From: Alphaproteobacteria bacterium
GTDB taxonomy: Bacteria > Pseudomonadota > Alphaproteobacteria > Rs-D84
Direction of reading: 5' to 3'
Length of the DNA stretch: 64,000 nt
NCBI GenBank assembly: GCA_017535105.1
Contig: JAFXUI010000001.1
Location: forward strand, 174,612-238,611
The position numbers and the translations under genes are program-made. Of this stretch, positions 53,610 through 63,044 are shown piece after piece. Under the pieces are notes generated by a model that was not told where the DNA came from, searched no databases, and saw nothing but the letters and a program-made list of their open reading frames with translations. Positions within the stretch are counted from its first letter, which is position 1, and the number at the start of each line of letters is the position of its first letter.

Positions 53610-55163
53610 ATGGAAAGGTATACCAGATTTTGTTGGTTTTTGGGTATATTGGTGTGTTTGCCATGCTTTGCCACGACAGACATTGTTGCCGTACAAAAGT
53701 CGGGCGATCGGTATATGACACTGGATACCATAATCGAGCCCGGTGGGTCTTTTGTGGACGGTACAATTTACATACAAAACTCACTGAATATCGTAAATAA
53801 TGGTCAAATTACAAGTGCCTTAAACGTATGTAATAATTGTAATGTGTATATCGAAAATACCGGCATTTATAATGCGGCCGCAACACTTGGTACAAACGCG
53901 ACCATTACCCAGGTTATAAAGAATGCGGCGGATATAACGACCCTTACAAATATCGGGGCGGGTAATTATGGAGTCTTGGTTCAAGATACAGCGACCACGT
54001 TAAATTGGAACACGATTAAAAATACAACAATCGGTGCCAATAAATTCGAATTTGATAACGCAAAACTGGAAATGGGTTTGATTGAGAGTATCAGTAATGT
54101 TCGTATAACTAATAATCTGTTTATACATACGCACGATGTTATAAATACAGATACATTATTATTTGCCAATGTTTCGGGTGATGGGGTTGTTTATGTTGAT
54201 TCTGATAATCTTGATATTATGTATGAACTTGAAACATACAAGGTTACAAACAGTATTTTTGTGCGGACAGTTCGTTCGGGTGACTATGGCCGAATATTAA
54301 ATAATGGGGCGGGGCGTTTCTTGAATCAATTGCGAATTGATTTGCCCGAAGATAAATTGTTAAACAAAATGGACAAAGCCAAAACAATGTCCGAATTGAA
54401 ACATATTATGTCGCGAAGTGTACGATTAAATCCAATAAAACTTTTGCAACCAATTAAAACACTGTATGCGCATAAAATGCTGGAAACAATGCACATAGAC
54501 GATGATACGGTTTTTGGTTTTATGCCGTTTGGTGTGTTTTCTGATGATATTATTTTAAATGGCGCGGGGCCGCGCATAAGTACAAAAATATCAGACGATT
54601 TACATTTAACAATATCGGGTTATTTTGCCGATTTGGAATATTCAGATGACATAAATGAATACACGGGTAGTTCATATGGAATCGGCCTGGATATCGTTGA
54701 TAATTTATCATCTGATAATTTTGTTCGTATATACGGCGATGTTGGTTTTTCGCATTTTAATGCGGGACCAATATTTAATGGGCGTAAAACAAAAAAGAAT
54801 CCAGACGGTTTTTCGGGGTATATGGCGGGTGAATTTGGGCACAAGTTTGATGTTGATGAATATTATGTCACGCCATTTATTATGGTGGGGTCTGAATATA
54901 CAGAAGTGTTAAATGATAATGTTTTGGACACGTATGTTGGTGCGGGCGCAAATGCAGGCTTTGATTTGGAAATTGACGGGTTGCGGTATGATTATATGGC
55001 GCGCAGTATTGTACGTTCAGACGGCGGGTTCGGCGCATCGGTAAATATCTCCGTATGGTCGGGTTTAGACGCAGCGGGGGCGGATTTTGGGGTTGGTGTG
55101 TTTTATGACAATGTGTCGGGGCCATCGTACCGCGCGTCAATAAACGGAAAGTTCGGTTTTTAA
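53610..55163 (+). CDS. autotransporter-like outer-membrane protein
   Basis: 517 aa. Signal peptide, N/T/I-rich repetitive N-terminal half (NSLNIVNNGQITSALNVCNNCNVYIENTGIYNAAATLGTNATITQV), C-terminal half with alternating beta pattern ending SYRASINGKFGF. Confidence 0.45.
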   Translation: MERYTRFCWFLGILVCLPCFATTDIVAVQKSGDRYMTLDTIIEPGGSFVDGTIYIQNSLNIVNNGQITSALNVCNNCNVYIENTGIYNAAATLGTNATITQVIKNAADITTLTNIGAGNYGVLVQDTATTLNWNTIKNTTIGANKFEFDNAKLEMGLIESISNVRITNNLFIHTHDVINTDTLLFANVSGDGVVYVDSDNLDIMYELETYKVTNSIFVRTVRSGDYGRILNNGAGRFLNQLRIDLPEDKLLNKMDKAKTMSELKHIMSRSVRLNPIKLLQPIKTLYAHKMLETMHIDDDTVFGFMPFGVFSDDIILNGAGPRISTKISDDLHLTISGYFADLEYSDDINEYTGSSYGIGLDIVDNLSSDNFVRIYGDVGFSHFNAGPIFNGRKTKKNPDGFSGYMAGEFGHKFDVDEYYVTPFIMVGSEYTEVLNDNVLDTYVGAGANAGFDLEIDGLRYDYMARSIVRSDGGFGASVNISVWSGLDAAGADFGVGVFYDNVSGPSYRASINGKFGF

Positions 55164-56461
55164 TCGACAATTTTTCCGCGCAGTGATGCCTTGTTTGCGG
55201 CGGTAATCTTTATATCGCATATTTGTTTGGGGTCACCGTCTGGGCGCGCCACGATACACTGTTGCATATATGGAGTGCGATAAACAAGGTGATGACCAGT
55301 TTTATCGGGACCCTCACACAGACAGGTCAATGTTTTATCAATACACGATTCATTGAAAGCGCGTTGAATTTCATTTAATTCAGAATCAAGAATCGCCAAT
55401 CGTTTTGACTTTATTGTTTCTGGAATCTGGTCGGGCATAATTGCCGCGGCGGTATGGGGGCGGGGCGAATATTTGAACGAAAATGAATTTATGTATTTAA
55501 CCTGATGCGCTATATCCAATGTTTTCTGAAAATCATTATCTGATTCACCAGGGAACCCAACAATAAAGTCCGAAGATATTTGAATGTCTGGTCGCGCCAA
55601 TTTCAATTTATGAACAATGTTCATATATTGATCCAAATCGTATGGACGATTCATGCGCTTCAAGACATCGGGCGAACCGCTTTGAATTGGCATATTAAGA
55701 AATGGTAATAATTTTGGTTCAACCGCGAACATATTTATTAAATCATCGGTCATTTCGGTCGGATAACTGGACGTGAAACGGATACGTTTAATGCTGGCAA
55801 TTTTTGCCGCCGCTTTAATTAAATCAGACAAACGGTATGTCGTTCCGTTTTCATCGGTATATTTATATCCATTGACGTTTTGTCCCAAAAAGCAGATTTC
55901 AACCGCGCCTGTATTTGCAGCCAATTCGACATCGCGAACACAATCGGCATATGCGCGCGATATTTCACGGCCACGGGTATATGGCACAATACAGTATGTA
56001 CAGCAATGGTTACAACCTTCTTGAATTGGGACGTATGTGACAAGTGGTGATTTTTCCATTTGTGGCATTTCATCGAATTTTTCCAAACCAGATAATTCAA
56101 TATTAAATAAACGCATGTCTGGGTCATTCAATATCTCGGGCAATTTATGATAACTCTGTGGACCCAAAACAAAGTTCAAATCTGGTACGCGTTTAAATGC
56201 ATCTGCGCCTGATTCGCGTGCAACACAGCCAACAATGCCCATTATTGCGTCTGGCTTTTTTACAAGACGTATACGGCCCAATGCAGAATATACTTTATCG
56301 GTTGCCTTGGCACGAACAGCACATGTGTTCAATATGATAATATCGGCATCGGCAACATCGTCTGTTTTGACCATACCGCGCGCGTCCAACATTGCCGCAA
56401 TGCGCCAGCCGTCATAGACGTTCATTTGACAACCAAAAGTTTGGATAAAGTATTTTTTCAT
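55160..56461 (-). CDS. miaB: tRNA-2-methylthio-N6-dimethylallyladenosine synthase MiaB
   Basis: 433 aa. UPF0004 N-terminus FGCQMNVYD, radical-SAM GCNHCCTYCIVPYTRGRE, C-terminal TRAM-like region. Confidence 0.9.
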   Translation of the reverse strand: MKKYFIQTFGCQMNVYDGWRIAAMLDARGMVKTDDVADADIIILNTCAVRAKATDKVYSALGRIRLVKKPDAIMGIVGCVARESGADAFKRVPDLNFVLGPQSYHKLPEILNDPDMRLFNIELSGLEKFDEMPQMEKSPLVTYVPIQEGCNHCCTYCIVPYTRGREISRAYADCVRDVELAANTGAVEICFLGQNVNGYKYTDENGTTYRLSDLIKAAAKIASIKRIRFTSSYPTEMTDDLINMFAVEPKLLPFLNMPIQSGSPDVLKRMNRPYDLDQYMNIVHKLKLARPDIQISSDFIVGFPGESDNDFQKTLDIAHQVKYINSFSFKYSPRPHTAAAIMPDQIPETIKSKRLAILDSELNEIQRAFNESCIDKTLTCLCEGPDKTGHHLVYRTPYMQQCIVARPDGDPKQICDIKITAANKASLRGKIVD

Positions 56462-57256: not shown

Positions 57257-58777
57257 TTACCCCAACTTTTGTTTCAGCATTTCGTTCACAACCGCCGGAT
57301 TGGCTTGACCCTTGGTCGCCTTCATCACATTACCAACAAAGAAGCCAAGCAGACCAACCTTGCCACCCTTGTACTGTTCAACTTGGGCTGGGTTGTTTTT
57401 AATTACTTCATCAACGGCTGCCTCAATCGCAGACGTGTCGGTAATTTGCTTCATGCCAAACTTGTCGGCAATTGTGTGCGGTGTGCCATCTTCGCCGTCC
57501 AACATTTTGATAAAGATTTCTTTGGCCTGTTTACCGTTGATTTCATTTGCCGCAATCATATCAACCAATTCAGATAAATCGGTTGGTGTGATAATACGCA
57601 TTTCATCAACGATGCCTGATTTCTTGTTTTCGATATCATAGTTTTCGGGGTGTGCAAACAGTTCAGAAATCATCCAGTTCGCAATCGGTTTTGCGCGTTC
57701 TGGTTTGCCGCCAACCGCCGCATCGTACCAATGAGAGATATCAACAGTTTCGGTAAGGCGCGCAGCATCATATTCCGATAAACCATATTGTTCGATATAG
57801 CGGGCGCGTGTTGCCGATGGTAATTCCGGCATAGTTTTGCGAATACGTTCGATTTGTTCGTCTGTAATAATCAACGGCAACAAATCGGGATCTGGGAAAT
57901 AACGATAGTCCAACGCATCTTCCTTAGAACGCATAACGGTTGTTATGCCATCGTCTGGGTGATAGCGCATTGTATCTTGGGAAACCTGACCACCGTTTTC
58001 ATACACTTCGATTTGACGGCGTGCTTCATATTCTATTGCGGCTTTGATAAACTTAAACGAAACCATATTTTTCGTTTCGGTACGTGTACGGAAAGTCTTT
58101 TCACCAACGCGACGAACCGATACATTTACGTCAGCACGCATGGAACCTTCTTCCATATTTGCCTTAGACACACCCAGTGCACGTGCGATTTCACGAATTT
58201 CGCGCAGATATCTTTCTGCTTCGTCTGGTGACGTGATATATGAATTGTTTTCTGGGTTTTTCGTATCCAAGAACGTGACAATTTCCAACAACGAAACACC
58301 AGTACGGTTATAGTCCGCAAAAGATTTTGTTGGGTGAACATCGTGTTTCAACTTACCGGCATCTTGTTCCAAGTGTGCGCGTTCAATGAAAATCTTTTTT
58401 GGATTTCCGTCATCGCCCATAATTTCAACATAGCCACGACCAACAACGGGTGCGACTTCTGGTGGCTGTGAAATCTGGTATCCCTGGGGCAGGTCAGGGT
58501 AAAAATATTGTTTACGGGCAAAAGAACTGCGGTGCGATATGTCGGCGTGTATCCCCAGGCCGAATTTAATTGCCTGTTCAACACAGTATTCGTTTAATAC
58601 CGGCAACATACCCGGCATTGCCGCATCAACCATTGAAACCTGGGTGTTTGGGGCAATGGTCGGATTATAGTCCGCCGATGCGCCACTGAATAGTTTGGAA
58701 TTGGATAAAACCTCTATATGAGTTTCCAATCCGATAACCAATTCCCAATCACCTGTTTTGCCTTTTATTGTAAACAT
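57257..58777 (-). CDS. gatB: Asp/Glu-tRNA(Asn/Gln) amidotransferase subunit B
   Basis: Trimmed to MFTIKGKTGDWELVIGLETHIEV (506 aa). The track's 5' extension (to 58855) runs antisense through tRNA-Phe. C-terminal GatB/YqeY domain is present. Confidence 0.95.
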   Translation of the reverse strand: MFTIKGKTGDWELVIGLETHIEVLSNSKLFSGASADYNPTIAPNTQVSMVDAAMPGMLPVLNEYCVEQAIKFGLGIHADISHRSSFARKQYFYPDLPQGYQISQPPEVAPVVGRGYVEIMGDDGNPKKIFIERAHLEQDAGKLKHDVHPTKSFADYNRTGVSLLEIVTFLDTKNPENNSYITSPDEAERYLREIREIARALGVSKANMEEGSMRADVNVSVRRVGEKTFRTRTETKNMVSFKFIKAAIEYEARRQIEVYENGGQVSQDTMRYHPDDGITTVMRSKEDALDYRYFPDPDLLPLIITDEQIERIRKTMPELPSATRARYIEQYGLSEYDAARLTETVDISHWYDAAVGGKPERAKPIANWMISELFAHPENYDIENKKSGIVDEMRIITPTDLSELVDMIAANEINGKQAKEIFIKMLDGEDGTPHTIADKFGMKQITDTSAIEAAVDEVIKNNPAQVEQYKGGKVGLLGFFVGNVMKATKGQANPAVVNEMLKQKLG

Positions 58778-58828: not shown

Positions 58829-58904
58829 GGCTAGGTAGCTCAGTTGGTAGAGCAAGGGACTGAAAATCCCTGTGTCAGCGGTTCGATTCCGTTCCTAGCC
58901 ACCA
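58829..58904 (+). tRNA. tRNA-Phe (anticodon GAA)
   Basis: 76 nt: acceptor GGCTAGG/CCTAGCC, D arm GCTC-AGTTGGTA-GAGC, anticodon arm AGGGA-CTGAAAA-TCCCT, T arm AGCGG-TTCGATT-CCGTT (one G-U pair), encoded CCA, followed by a T-run. Confidence 0.95.
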
Positions 58905-58917
58905 TTTTTTTTTACCC

Positions 58918-60384
58918 TTATTTTCCCATTATCTTGGTTGGACGATTATCAACGCCGGCGAACTGTTCGATGTGTTTTGCCAATTGTAACACGCGCAAAT
59001 CATCGAAACGTTTACCCATGACTTGTAATCCCAATGGCAAACCGTTTTGTGCAATTCCCGCGGGGACACTGCACGCCGGTATGCCCGCCAGGTTCATCGC
59101 CACCGTAAACATATCCAACGCGTAATATTCCAGTGGTGTCAGGTCGGAATCTAATGGCATTGCCGTACCCGAACTTGTTGGGCAAATAATCAAATCGCAT
59201 TGTTCAAATGCGGCATTGAAACTGTCTGCTATCATACGGCGAACACGTGCGGCCTGCATAAAGTAAACTTCATACGATTCGCTGGACAACACGGCGGTAC
59301 CGATAATCATACGGCGTTGGACTTCATCACCAAAGCCAGCGGCACGTGTCTTTTTATATGTGTCAATTAAATCGGAACCCTCTACACGCAGGCCATATCT
59401 CATACCATCGTAACGGGCAAGGTTCGATGAAGCCTCAGCCGGTGCGATAATGTAATATGCCGCCAACGCGTCCAAAATGTTTGGAATTGAAACCTCAACA
59501 ATTTCGGCGCCCAATGATTTAAGGTCGGCGATACGGTCGTTAAATAACTTCTGCATATCATCAGAAATCTTAACATTATTCAATTCGCGAATAACACCAA
59601 TGCGTAATTTTTTACCGTCACCCAAAATTGATTCAAGTGGTGTATGTGCATTAAATCCGGCACTTTCGCTTGTTGAATCTTTATCGTCGTGCCCCGCCAT
59701 TGCCGACAACATTAATGCCGCATCATCAACCGTACGTGCAATTGGACCGGGGGTGTCCAAACTTGACGCAAAGGCAACACAGCCCCAACGTGAGCAAAGA
59801 CCATAGGTTGGTTTCATTCCAACCAAGCCAGTGATTGCGGACGGAAAACGAATCGAACCACCAGTATCGGTACCCGTCGCCGCCATACATAAACCACCTG
59901 CCACCGCAGACGATGAACCACCCGATGAACCACCGGCGGTCAGTTTGCGTTCCATTTGCCATGGGTTGACAGGCGCACCAAAGTATGATGTCTTGCTGAA
60001 CGTGCCCATTGCAAATTCGTCCAGGTTTGTTTTACCCAACAACACAGTACCCGCATCAATCAATTTTTGAGACACAGTTGATTCATATTCTGGAACAAAA
60101 TTTTCAAGCATATGCGATGCCGCAGTCGTGCGAATACCACGTGTCGCGAACAAATCTTTCATACCGATTGGAATGCCCTCCAACGCGCGCGCAGTGCCAT
60201 CGGCATAATGTTTATCCGCAAGTTCAGCGTCAGCCAAAGCGCGTTCTGGTGTGCGCGTGATATAGCAATTTAATTCATCGCCATATTTTTCAATACGGTC
60301 TAAATAAGCACGCGTCAATTCGGTCGCGCTTAATTCGCCGCTTTTCAATTTTTCCAATGCTTCACATATTGTTAAATCAATCAT
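58918..60384 (-). CDS. gatA: Asp/Glu-tRNA(Asn/Gln) amidotransferase subunit A
   Basis: 488 aa. Amidase signature GGSSGGSSSAVAGGLCMAATGTDTGGSIRFPSA. Confidence 0.95.
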   Translation of the reverse strand: MIDLTICEALEKLKSGELSATELTRAYLDRIEKYGDELNCYITRTPERALADAELADKHYADGTARALEGIPIGMKDLFATRGIRTTAASHMLENFVPEYESTVSQKLIDAGTVLLGKTNLDEFAMGTFSKTSYFGAPVNPWQMERKLTAGGSSGGSSSAVAGGLCMAATGTDTGGSIRFPSAITGLVGMKPTYGLCSRWGCVAFASSLDTPGPIARTVDDAALMLSAMAGHDDKDSTSESAGFNAHTPLESILGDGKKLRIGVIRELNNVKISDDMQKLFNDRIADLKSLGAEIVEVSIPNILDALAAYYIIAPAEASSNLARYDGMRYGLRVEGSDLIDTYKKTRAAGFGDEVQRRMIIGTAVLSSESYEVYFMQAARVRRMIADSFNAAFEQCDLIICPTSSGTAMPLDSDLTPLEYYALDMFTVAMNLAGIPACSVPAGIAQNGLPLGLQVMGKRFDDLRVLQLAKHIEQFAGVDNRPTKIMGK

Positions 60385-61019: not shown

Positions 61020-61436
61020 CTACCGTTGTTTCGCTTGTTCTTTGTTATACTTATCTGCAAAGAATTTTTTACCGATGTTTTCAATTACAAAGGTGTCTGT
61101 GCATTTGCCATTTTTAATTTTGCGCGCACAGTTTTTTGCCGTACATATACTGGTTCTTTTCAAGATTGGACAAATGTTAAGTCGGCCATCATATCTGTTG
61201 ATATGTTGGTTATCTGGGGCAGTATTGGATACAAATATGGTTGTATCAATACACATATTTGCAAACATACGGCGCACACAAGAATTTTCAGGTATTTTTC
61301 CATTGCATGATAACGTCGCCAGATAATCTTTTATCTTGGCTTCGGTCATTGGTTCGGACTTGATGTTATAAGAACAGTCGGTATAAATATCACCGATTCT
61401 GCTAATCATTATATTTACATCATACTTTCTGGACAT
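61020..61436 (-). CDS. Cys-rich small protein, paralog 1 of 3 (138 aa)
   Basis: MSRKYDV... ends SICTAKNCARKIKNGKCTDTFVIENIGKKFFADKYNKEQAKQR. 8 Cys. The 3' end shares a 31-nt identical run with paralog 2. Confidence 0.55.
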   Translation of the reverse strand: MSRKYDVNIMISRIGDIYTDCSYNIKSEPMTEAKIKDYLATLSCNGKIPENSCVRRMFANMCIDTTIFVSNTAPDNQHINRYDGRLNICPILKRTSICTAKNCARKIKNGKCTDTFVIENIGKKFFADKYNKEQAKQR

Positions 61437-61447
61437 ATAAAATCTCT

Positions 61448-61879
61448 TTATTTCTGCTTGTCTTTATACTTATCTGCAAAGAATTTTTTACCGATATTTT
61501 CAATCACAAACGCATCAGTGCATTTGCCATTTCTGATATTATTAAAGCAATCGCGATCGTGGCATTTGCTTGTGTACATGCCTGCGCTGGCATGATTAGT
61601 CATATAAAGATTCAAGCAACCCTTGCTTTCTTCTTGTGGGGCGTCTGGACACGTGTACATGCTTGATAAATACACACTTGATGATTCTTTATTCTCGAAA
61701 TGTGCAGTTAAATGTTTCGGACAAGAATAAAACGATATTTTTTTCTGGGCGGCCAGTTCCTGTAAATATTGTTTAACTTGTTGTTCGGTCAATGAACCAC
61801 AATGCAACGGTTCAACACCCCCATTATGTGCACCAGCACAAGCAGAGTAGTTTAAAATAACATCGTACTTTTTTTCCAT
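61448..61879 (-). CDS. Cys-rich small protein, paralog 2 of 3 (143 aa)
   Basis: MEKKYDV... ends SKCHDRDCFNNIRNGKCTDAFVIENIGKKFFADKYKDKQK. 8 Cys. AAGGGA SD. Confidence 0.55.
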   Translation of the reverse strand: MEKKYDVILNYSACAGAHNGGVEPLHCGSLTEQQVKQYLQELAAQKKISFYSCPKHLTAHFENKESSSVYLSSMYTCPDAPQEESKGCLNLYMTNHASAGMYTSKCHDRDCFNNIRNGKCTDAFVIENIGKKFFADKYKDKQK

Positions 61880-61891
61880 TTTATATTCCCT

Positions 61892-62269
61892 TTATCTTTG
61901 TTTGTCTTTATACAATTCAGGCAAAATATGTTGGACAACCATATCACGCATAAATTTATCAACGCATTTACCATGGCACATTTTTTCAATGCAAATGCCG
62001 GTGCGTATTGGACGGGCGCGTGTGTACAAATTTGGTTGGCATTTTGTGCGCGGATTGTATTTCGTGTTTATAAACAATCTGCCATCAGTCCATTCCGCAG
62101 AAATAGAGTTTATACAAGAAAAAGCATCAGGTGTTTCTGATTCCAATATTTTTTTAATGCGACGTGCTGTGTCTTCGTCTATGCGTACGGGTAAACGTTC
62201 ACGTTGATGTTGTGGCATAAATACCGTTTCGTCGTTTAATAAAACCAAACCATCTGTTTTTTTTGCCAT
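61892..62269 (-). CDS. Cys-rich small protein, paralog 3 of 3 (125 aa, divergent)
   Basis: Ends GICIEKMCHGKCVDKFMRDMVVQHILPELYKDKQR. The conserved SC...C...C-x4-C-xn-GKC-D-F pattern is shared with paralogs 1 and 2. ATG is 2 nt after the gatC stop, with a GGAGA SD inside gatC. Confidence 0.5.
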   Translation of the reverse strand: MAKKTDGLVLLNDETVFMPQHQRERLPVRIDEDTARRIKKILESETPDAFSCINSISAEWTDGRLFINTKYNPRTKCQPNLYTRARPIRTGICIEKMCHGKCVDKFMRDMVVQHILPELYKDKQR

Positions 62270-62271
62270 AA

Positions 62272-62568
62272 TTAATCTCCATCCATAACCTTGGGTACCG
62301 CAAAATACCCACGTGAAGTGCCAGCATTGTCTGGCGCGTTTTTCAGTACGTCCGCACGTGGTGCGTTGTCGGTGACAACATCAGCGCGACGGGGCAATTC
62401 ATGTGATGCCGGGTTCAACATTGGTTCAACACCGTTCGTGTCAATTTGTTGTAATTTATCCAGCCAATCAACCACAGAATCAATGTTCATAGATTCCAGT
62501 TTTTCGTCAGAAATTTCAATCCGAATAAGGTCGGCAAATTTGTGTAATTGTTGCTTGCTAAACGCCAT
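62272..62568 (-). CDS. gatC: Asp/Glu-tRNA(Asn/Gln) amidotransferase subunit C
   Basis: Trimmed to MAFSKQQLHKFADLIRIEISDEKLESMNIDSVVDWLDKLQQIDTNGVEPMLNP (98 aa) with AGGA SD. Confidence 0.9.
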   Translation of the reverse strand: MAFSKQQLHKFADLIRIEISDEKLESMNIDSVVDWLDKLQQIDTNGVEPMLNPASHELPRRADVVTDNAPRADVLKNAPDNAGTSRGYFAVPKVMDGD

Positions 62569-62606
62569 TTTAGATCCTATTATTAAAACCAGAGGTTGAT
62601 TATACA

Positions 62607-63044
62607 ATGATTATGCCAGATTTCAAGGATTTTCCGCGCAATGCGCGCATTATTGGATTCGATTGGGGCGCACGGCGTACCGGGGTTGCCGTATCAGACG
62701 AAAGCTGGGAATTTGTTTTTGCGCGTAAACCGATTGTCGGGGGTGATATGGCGCGCCAAATGGCTGATTTGGCGGTGTCTGAACGTGTGGTGGGAATTGT
62801 TATTGGTTTGCCGTTGCGGACCGATGGGTCGGAATCTGAAACAACAAAACAGGTTCGCGCAGTTGCCAATCAAATTGCCGAATATACCGATTTGCCAATT
62901 TGTTTTGTTGATGAAACTTTATCCAGTGCCACCGCCGCACAAGAGGCCGGGTTGCACAAGCAAAAAGAAGTCAAAGAAAAATTGGATTCAGAATCCGCGC
63001 GTCTTATTTTGGAAAACGCGATTGCAATAATGAAACGTTTGTAA
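62607..63044 (+). CDS. ruvX: Holliday junction resolvase-like nuclease RuvX (YqgF)
   Basis: 145 aa. IIGFDWGARRTGVAVSD and IVIGLPLRTDGSESETT are YqgF signatures. Confidence 0.9.
   Translation: MIMPDFKDFPRNARIIGFDWGARRTGVAVSDESWEFVFARKPIVGGDMARQMADLAVSERVVGIVIGLPLRTDGSESETTKQVRAVANQIAEYTDLPICFVDETLSSATAAQEAGLHKQKEVKEKLDSESARLILENAIAIMKRL

Follow-up and report, generated by a model that had tools for sequence, protein, structure and literature searches.

What are three tandem genes for small cysteine-rich proteins doing inside gatCAB, the operon of the tRNA amidotransferase? The question is raised by a 64,000-nucleotide stretch of DNA (hereafter the window, analysed at its full length) from an alphaproteobacterium of the Rs-D84 lineage (GenBank assembly GCA_017535105.1, contig JAFXUI010000001.1, positions 174,612 to 238,611), in which three such genes, designated A, B and C, lie between gatC and gatA. 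Comparison with relatives shows that they occupy a cassette slot at the gatC|gatA junction, whose content varies between strains and draws on several orphan families. A, B and C belong to one of these, a family with four invariant cysteines (the Cys4 family), which is long associated with the junction yet dispensable for GatCAB; its members are accessory passengers and not subunits. The slot and its borders in the window are as follows.

62568..62272, minus strand: gatC, 98 aa from an internal ATG; Pfam GatC, E=5.5e-13
62269..61892, minus strand: paralog A, 125 aa, of a divergent "ILPELY-tail" subfamily; cysteines C52, C93, C98 and C102
61879..61448, minus strand: paralog B, 143 aa, a typical member; cysteines C53, C106, C111 and C120
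61436..61020, minus strand: paralog C, 138 aa, a typical member; cysteines C53, C98, C103 and C112
61013..60402, minus strand: ORF-D, 203 aa, the fourth cassette, from a second orphan family
60384..58918, minus strand: gatA, 488 aa, the downstream border of the slot; Amidase Pfam match on orthologues
58777..57257, minus strand: gatB, 506 aa

A first-pass annotation of the sequence had described three co-oriented open reading frames (ORFs) of 125, 143 and 138 aa, 11-12 nt apart, each with its own Shine-Dalgarno (SD) sequence. Their coordinates, sizes and spacers were confirmed, as was their insertion within gatCAB. The count of three inserted ORFs had left out ORF-D, the fourth. The spacers, as read from the sequence, are 2 nt between gatC and A, 12 nt between A and B, 11 nt between B and C, 6 nt between C and D, and 17 nt between D and gatA. 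SD-like purine-rich stretches (GGAGA, AAGGGAA and AAAGAGA) precede the paralogs. A profile search of the 64-kb window returned only these three family copies.

The slot was surveyed in metagenome contigs with the GatC of the window, and not the family, as query. Eighty loci were collected at 72-100% identity, the most window-similar of 223 gatC loci; many lie on short contigs, and the proportions given below describe this sample and are not a census. Both gatC and gatA are carried by 64 loci, which were counted as complete junctions. The slot holds one to three family copies in 35 of the 64 (32 found by hidden Markov model, HMM, and three more divergent ones by eye). It holds only other cassettes in nine, from the ORF-D family and/or resembling the C-terminal domain of the RNA polymerase (RNAP) alpha subunit (alpha-CTD), and it is empty in 20. 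The gatC stop lies 1-3 nt before the gatA ATG in ten of the empty slots, and up to about 100 nt before it in the other ten. In filled slots, the first cassette begins 1-15 nt past the gatC stop, and an SD-like end stands ahead of gatA. In the slot, the Cys4 family alternates with other small basic orphan proteins, one of them alpha-CTD-like.

Content differs even among close relatives. The window has A, B, C and D; locus L035, whose GatC is 100% identical to that of the window, has A, B and C; L028 has A and B; in L031, A and B are followed by a 122-aa family member of another kind and then by D; and L001 has a single B-like copy. In the clade of the window, members of the A-type, ILPELY-tail subfamily always stand first after gatC. 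When the window is compared with L028 and L031, the cassette proteins are 76-92% identical, versus 97-98% for GatA in the same pairs. On a neighbour-joining tree of GatC and GatA, the family is found in the slot in nearly all clades, and the empty slots form one coherent clade together with scattered tips.

The family has other homes as well. A second conserved one lies between gyrA, which is divergent, and rpmH, where one or two copies are found (L007, L010-L013, L021, L024 and L026), with leuS and a gene for an acyl-acyl carrier protein (acyl-ACP) thioesterase just downstream, the latter two genes away. The metagenome-assembled genome (MAG) RUG12958 has family loci at both gatC|gatA and gyrA|rpmH. 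Further copies occur beside clpB, between pfk and dnaK, and following tilS-ftsH. The last of these is fused to ACP (P0056, L115 5001-5645), and a second, separate cluster of such fusions exists (P0125). In both, the ACP part (Pfam PP-binding, E=2e-11) is N-terminal to a full family domain. Because slots are empty or differently filled and copies stand at other housekeeping junctions, we conclude that the family is not a GatCAB subunit. The co-occurrence throughout the lineage that would mark an obligate partner is not observed, with 20 of 64 junctions empty and nine filled by other cassettes only. The earlier proposal that expression of these genes is hard-wired to gatCAB is therefore not supported, given these junctions and the copies at gyrA|rpmH, pfk|dnaK, clpB and tilS-ftsH, and the idea of a factor associated with tRNA or aminoacyl-tRNA synthetases is weakened by the same facts.

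The similarity that marks A, B and C as paralogs is well above chance: BLASTP aligns B with C at 35% identity (E=6e-23) and A with B at 23% (E=2e-6), and all three match the family profile. A profile built from the three retrieved 57 proteins, all without names. A HMMER scan of 1.84 billion cluster representatives gave 322 matches at E<=1e-3, 139 of them at E<=1e-10; the 322 are clusters at 50% identity, and the number is a lower bound on family size. Length is nearly constant, almost all members having 120-148 aa; a tandem fusion of two family domains (P0150) has 348 aa. In an alignment of 184 sequences the four cysteines (C53, C106, C111 and C120 in B numbering) are at least 99% conserved, and B positions G118, K119, D122, F124, I129, G130, K131 and Y138 are also strongly conserved. 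The resulting signature is C-x4-C-x(3-8)-GKC-x-D-x-F-x4-IGK-x-FF-x-DKY. Some 40-55 residues separate the first invariant cysteine from the second, and the third gap is x8 in B and x3 in A. The motifs listed in the first-pass annotation are present, and its count of eight cysteines in two paralogs holds for B and C, A having five. Over the C-terminal 35 residues the sequence hardly varies and is basic; the sheet domain, by contrast, diverges fast. The median pI is 8.9 for the family and 9.4 for the C-terminal 30 aa.

Orthologue comparisons gave dN/dS values of 0.07-0.32 for A, B and C, to be compared with 0.00-0.05 for gatC and gatA, 0.13-0.21 for ruvX and 0.19 for ORF-D, so that the three paralogs evolve faster than the flanking genes. 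These values, together with constant length and cysteine conservation, indicate that A, B and C are real protein-coding genes that look expressed and whose selection is purifying though relaxed. No match to a characterised family, which would have spoken against the first-pass annotation, came to light. None of the three has a signal peptide, transmembrane helix or lipobox; their N-termini carry charged residues, as in MEKKYDV, and the maximum Kyte-Doolittle mean over 19 residues does not exceed 0.77. Since a hydrophobic segment is absent, the proteins are predicted to be cytoplasmic, as had been proposed. A "YSAC" motif in B was considered as a lipoprotein signal and rejected, as it is not conserved and lacks a hydrophobic region.

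Where does the family occur? Among GTDB species representatives, a scan placed it in MAGs from rumen and gut and nowhere else, the labels being Alphaproteobacteria or Candidatus Enterousia. Every source that bears a name belongs to Ca. Enterousia / order Rs-D84, to which the family is restricted; this agrees with the earlier description of a lineage-specific, expanding family. Enterousia belongs to the uncultured order Rs-D84, whose members all have reduced genomes (~0.75-1.0 Mb) and a fermentative metabolism, and are probably partner-dependent (PMC12306168).

No relative with a name was found. A, B and C had no match better than E=0.03 in Pfam, NCBIfam or PHROGs. When 54 family members were compared with Pfam, all stayed below gathering scores; the best value was E=0.0012, for one member (CadC_C1), and the commonest sub-threshold name was Phage_int_SAM_4 (8 members, best E=0.0034). 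PADLOC gave a weak PDC-S05 match for A (E=0.027) and nothing for B, C or ORF-D. A scan of IMG/VR viral contigs returned no family relative, and a phage or defence origin was rejected on these three negative results, from viral contigs, PHROGs and PADLOC. A profile search of all Protein Data Bank (PDB) sequences gave no match at E<=10. Iterating the profile once more, with 139 diverse members, added neither a named protein nor one with a Pfam domain, and exact look-up of A to D in a collection of 15 billion proteins found none of them present.

A fold could nevertheless be predicted. The AlphaFold2 model of B, made from a 51-sequence alignment, has a pLDDT of 88 and a pTM of 0.81, with strands at 4-11 and 25-31, a helix at 32-44, long strands at 54-68 and 82-95, and helices at 108-116 and 123-133. 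The predicted fold is thus a beta-hairpin, a helix and a long beta-hairpin, followed by two C-terminal helices, and the model places one invariant cysteine at the start of strand 3 and the other three around the C-terminal helices. Foldseek with the B model gave a best E of 0.2 and TM<=0.31 against PDB, and a best E of 0.09 against BFVD; no ferredoxin or zinc-ribbon structure is among the matches. A beta-grasp or Nudix-like fold was rejected, as the weak Foldseek matches to Nudix hydrolases and to streptokinase or URM1-type proteins all stay at E>=0.2 with TM<=0.31, and a Nudix box is absent. The first-pass annotation had called the family unrecognised, and these searches uphold it. The family is undescribed, and the novelty of its modelled fold, judged against PDB and BFVD, is provisional. 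Literature searches on Enterousia and Rs-D84 turned up nothing beyond genome descriptions. We know of no description of a cassette slot within gatCAB. Surprise is tempered by the fact that metagenomes commonly contain orphan families.

How does the content of the slot change? The 3' ends of B and C carry a repeat that lies within their conserved C-terminal modules.

61045..61121: 77-nt repeat, copy 1, at the 3' end of C
61464..61540: 77-nt repeat, copy 2, at the 3' end of B
within 61451-61564: C-terminal module of B (GKCTDAFVIENIGKKFFADKY)
within 61023-61145: C-terminal module of C

The two copies are 88% identical over 77 nt, and their first 32 nt (61045-61076 and 61464-61495) are identical, minor codons included, for which the chance probability is about 1e-3 as estimated from codon frequencies. 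An identical run of 31 nt had been noticed at this place; the run is real, one nucleotide longer, and part of the 77-nt repeat. Comparison of the window with L035 gave dS values of 0.35 for gatC, 1.29 for A and 0.30 for gatA. In B, dS is 0.02 in the 5' part and 0.80 in the last 40 codons, and in C it is 0.035 and 0.48, respectively. This mosaic indicates that the A allele was replaced and that short tracts were exchanged in the 3' modules of B and C. The first-pass annotation had already suspected gene conversion of the 3' ends, and this is supported because dS there is high (0.5-0.8) while the 5' parts of B and C are nearly identical to those of L035 (0.02-0.04). The 3' ends are thus hot zones of recombination or gene conversion. 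The mosaic also suggests a way in which copies come and go, namely unequal recombination between conserved 3' modules.

A nucleotide-level element under the 3' end, such as an RNA or a recombination site, was rejected: Rfam detects only tRNAs, and members from other loci differ freely at synonymous sites of the motif, which places the conservation in the protein. Nor does the slot resemble an integron in its sequence, as no attC-like or other inter-cassette repeats were found, spacers are 6-17 nt, and no integrase is present in the flanks.

The other occupants of the slot are orphans of different kinds. The ORF-D family has 26 homologues without names, a very basic N-terminus, and the conserved motifs FLIANNIARRGKPLH..TAIKKL and HYENFAKKF. 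Neither Pfam, NCBIfam, PHROGs nor PADLOC gives ORF-D a significant match, and its AlphaFold model (pLDDT 85) has no PDB counterpart by Foldseek, nor its sequence in PDB. In relatives it is a mobile cassette of the gatC|gatA slot, sometimes present in two copies. A C-terminal motif shared between the Cys4 family and ORF-D (FVIENIGKKFFADKY versus RHYENFAKKFYTSDI) was considered and is unproven, hhalign pairing 15 columns with a probability of 1.5% and E=0.034. A third occupant, 116-133 aa long, joins a coiled coil to a free-standing alpha-CTD-like domain (Pfam RNA_pol_A_CTD, E=4.8e-14) and is found alone or with other cassettes in L004 (6418-6801), L056, L057, L060, L099, L105, L107 and L111. 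A fourth small family, "E", has 81-91 aa, starts with M-x-[YRT]-T-I, has no Pfam match and occurs in L053, L103, L104 and L111; P0160 has it joined to the C-terminal end of a Cys4-family domain.

Around the slot, the window has the following features.

62599..62626, minus strand: sigma-70-like promoter, TTGAAA-16-TATAAT, 11/12, in the divergent ruvX-gatC spacer
62607..63044, plus strand: ruvX, divergent from gatC
58829..58904, plus strand: tRNA-Phe(GAA), antisense, in the gatA-gatB spacer; kept in relatives L001 and L004
57252..56465, minus strand: three small orphan ORFs of 62, 57 and 137 aa, filling the gatB-miaB spacer
56461..55160, minus strand: miaB, 433 aa

No convincing terminator was found between the gatC promoter and gatA, and the promoter at 62599..62626, strong and near consensus, is likely to drive gatC, the cassettes and gatA. 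The longest gatB ORF starts at a TTG at 58855 and crosses tRNA-Phe; because of this overlap, the true start of gatB is probably the ATG at 58777. Rfam detects two tRNAs in the window and nothing else. Between gatA and the antisense tRNA-Phe, some relatives carry an orphan family of about 228 aa without Pfam match (L004 9221-9907, L016, L017 and L020), which the window does not have. The gatB-miaB spacer varies in content too, with ORFs of 63 and 137 aa in L001, of 62, 57 and 157 aa in L028, and of 44 and 54 aa in L004, and looks like a third variable slot of the same operon region. A few kb upstream of ruvX-gatC, relatives have TcpQ and secretin genes (type IVb pilus-like), then sufBD/sufC (L001 1-1455, L028 1-374); no link to the cassettes was found. 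GC skew in the window is strongly positive (~+0.1 to +0.26) from roughly 10 to 56 kb and slightly negative beyond, where gene orientation flips at miaB/gatCAB, and its cumulative curve peaks near 56 kb; the change could reflect a switch of replication strand, or merely gene orientation.

What, then, do the proteins do? Overall, we favour the explanation that they are passenger genes in a variable slot, encoding binding modules pinned by metal. We hold the whole with middling confidence, and are nearly certain of its descriptive part. The cassettes would be transcribed from the gatC promoter, and they keep the 1-15-nt gene spacing by which gatC and gatA are coupled where the slot of a relative is empty. 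The array would grow, shrink and swap alleles by homologous recombination and short-tract gene conversion via the conserved 3' module, which is supported, not proven. As to the proteins, four invariant cysteines in a cytoplasmic protein of an anaerobe most likely bind metal, judging from the alignment and the model. They probably pin the C-terminal helices to the sheet, Zn being the most likely metal and an Fe-S cluster possible. The Zn- or Fe-S-binding role in the first-pass annotation is thus borne out to the extent of a Cys4 set compatible with a metal site. The invariant basic end (GKC-D-F-IENIGKKFFADKYK) would contact one conserved cellular partner or nucleic acid, and the fast-evolving face of the beta-sheet would give each paralog its own specificity, which would make the proteins a strain-specific accessory repertoire and not a core translation factor. 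This picture of a metal-stabilised module that docks by a conserved end and recognises by a variable face, within such a repertoire, is tentative and may well be wrong. Several points weigh against the favoured explanation. The metal site is drawn from cysteine conservation and from the place of the cysteines in a predicted secondary structure; the C-terminus may be conserved for folding alone and not for docking; and the family's persistence in the slot in nearly every clade could still stem from a functional tie with GatCAB, since lost in some lineages.

Such a tie would be expected if the family were an accessory subunit or regulator of GatCAB or the transamidosome, or another factor linked to tRNA, made in fixed ratio with GatC and GatA. 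The position between gatC and gatA with its translational-coupling geometry, the presence of the family in the slot in nearly all clades, and copies near rpmH, leuS and tilS all fit this proposal. It is improbable all the same, and the rival most clearly weakened by the data: slots are empty in 20 of 64 junctions, ten of them with 1-3 nt between the genes, or hold unrelated cassettes only (9/64), copy number varies from 0 to 3 among close relatives, identity of the cassette proteins to L028 and L031 (76-92%) falls well below that of GatA (97-98%), and copies also lie beside dnaK, clpB and pfk. The basic character of the family, with its median pI of 8.9 and 9.4 in the C-terminal 30 aa, would point to small nucleic-acid-binding regulators or nucleoid-type proteins, whose C-terminal helices bind DNA or RNA and tune transcription or translation in a regulator-poor genome. 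The alpha-CTD-like coiled-coil cassette in the same slot of other strains and the very basic N-terminus of ORF-D are in keeping with it, and the NIGKK motif resembles the NLGKK hairpin of alpha-CTD, a likeness not confirmed by hhalign, Pfam or the model. We consider this role unlikely, however, as none of the 54 members has a Pfam match to a helix-turn-helix, a helix-hairpin-helix or any other nucleic-acid-binding domain, AlphaFold puts NIGKK in a continuous helix and not a hairpin, and hhalign against the alpha-CTD-like cassette family gives a probability of 0.6%, with another region aligned. Homology of the C-terminal motif to alpha-CTD or helix-hairpin-helix was rejected on the hhalign and Pfam results.

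The pattern of turnover suggests yet another role, that of orphan immunity, antitoxin-like or defence cassettes, a protective repertoire against the toxins or phages of a dense gut community, housed in an always-on operon. Tandem arrays mix unrelated small-protein families in one orientation, presence and alleles change from strain to strain between flanks that are 95-100% identical, and the genes evolve faster than those flanking them. Polyimmunity arrays and arrays of acquired interbacterial defence genes offer a comparison, and toxins can be missing from orphan immunity arrays. We nevertheless regard it as quite unlikely, with no toxin, recombinase or defence gene adjacent, no recognisable toxin in the operon or its flanks, no significant PADLOC match, no member on viral contigs and no inter-cassette repeats; an invariant C-terminal module and a Cys4 site would also be unusual for immunity proteins. 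A partner is hinted at, in "Rosetta-stone" fashion, by the ACP fusions alone; they raise the possibility of ACP-binding adaptors whose basic C-terminal module docks on acidic ACP. Two separate clusters (P0056 and P0125) have an N-terminal ACP fused to a full family domain, and the acyl-ACP thioesterase gene lies two genes off at gyrA|rpmH; but two fusions among more than 300 clusters may merely reflect insertion after acpP, and other lipid-synthesis context is absent, which makes such a role highly improbable. We give hardly any credence to a role as secreted effectors acting on a partner organism, whether animal, protist or bacterium. A fast-evolving, expanded family in a reduced, probably partner-dependent bacterium (PMC12306168), with type IV pilus/secretin genes a few kb away in relatives, would suit such a role; yet the proteins have neither signal peptide nor lipobox nor transmembrane helix, the second and third loci lack a linked secretion-system gene, and the invariant Cys4 set fits an intracellular metal site in an anaerobe.

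The favoured explanation, that of passenger genes encoding metal-pinned modules, can be extended into a bolder and rather unlikely form. In Rs-D84 / Enterousia bacteria, junctions of always-on housekeeping operons (gatC|gatA, gyrA|rpmH and others) would be dedicated expression slots for an exchangeable set of orphan small proteins, an integrase-free chromosomal cassette system whose members spread and are reshuffled by homologous recombination via a coding 3' module, and the proteins would have a new metal-binding Cys4 fold, with an invariant end on one target and a variable sheet for strain-specific defence or partner interaction.

Known systems resemble the slot in part. Flexible islets, polyimmunity arrays and integron arrays likewise gather unrelated small genes in one orientation at a fixed junction, with conserved flanks and strain-variable content. 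Unlike them, the slot sits inside an essential operon with coupling distances kept, has no integrase, recombinase, attC-like repeats, toxin or defence genes nearby, and seems to turn over by way of the coding 3' module itself. The proteins recall small Cys4 metal proteins (zinc ribbons, treble clefs, small Fe-S proteins) in being soluble, about 130 aa long and in having four invariant cysteines, and plant-type [2Fe-2S] ferredoxins in their C-x4-C element and, in the family model, a beta-beta-alpha-beta-beta core. However, their spacing is C...C-x4-C-x(3-8)-C, and neither the two CxxC (or CxxH) knuckles of zinc ribbons nor the C-x4-C-x2-C...C of ferredoxins. The family motif ENIGKKFFADKY looks like the NLGKKSLTEI hairpin of RNAP alpha-CTD, and genuine alpha-CTD-like cassettes share the slot; yet hhalign finds no relation, the predicted secondary structure differs, and Pfam finds no match in 54 members. 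Hp0100 of Helicobacter pylori is reportedly a lineage-specific accessory protein of the transamidosome. The Cys4 family differs in that many related gatCAB operons lack it and that it also occurs at unrelated loci; no ATPase or other enzymatic domain was detected in it.

Genomes of less than 1 Mb are expected to shed dispensable genes, whereas this lineage keeps, duplicates and exchanges orphan families inside an essential translation operon. What makes the case noteworthy is the combination of an invariant Cys4 set, a confidently modelled fold without match, expansion in a genome of less than 1 Mb, and a multi-family slot driven by recombination. The slot is a clean natural case of accessory genes borrowing the promoter and the translational coupling of a core operon without disrupting it, and of a module of coding sequence that would act as the recombination substrate for turnover of the array. 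If the family has a defined partner or a metal cofactor, it would provide a new small-protein fold and function, and could give a handle on strain differences among these uncultured gut bacteria.

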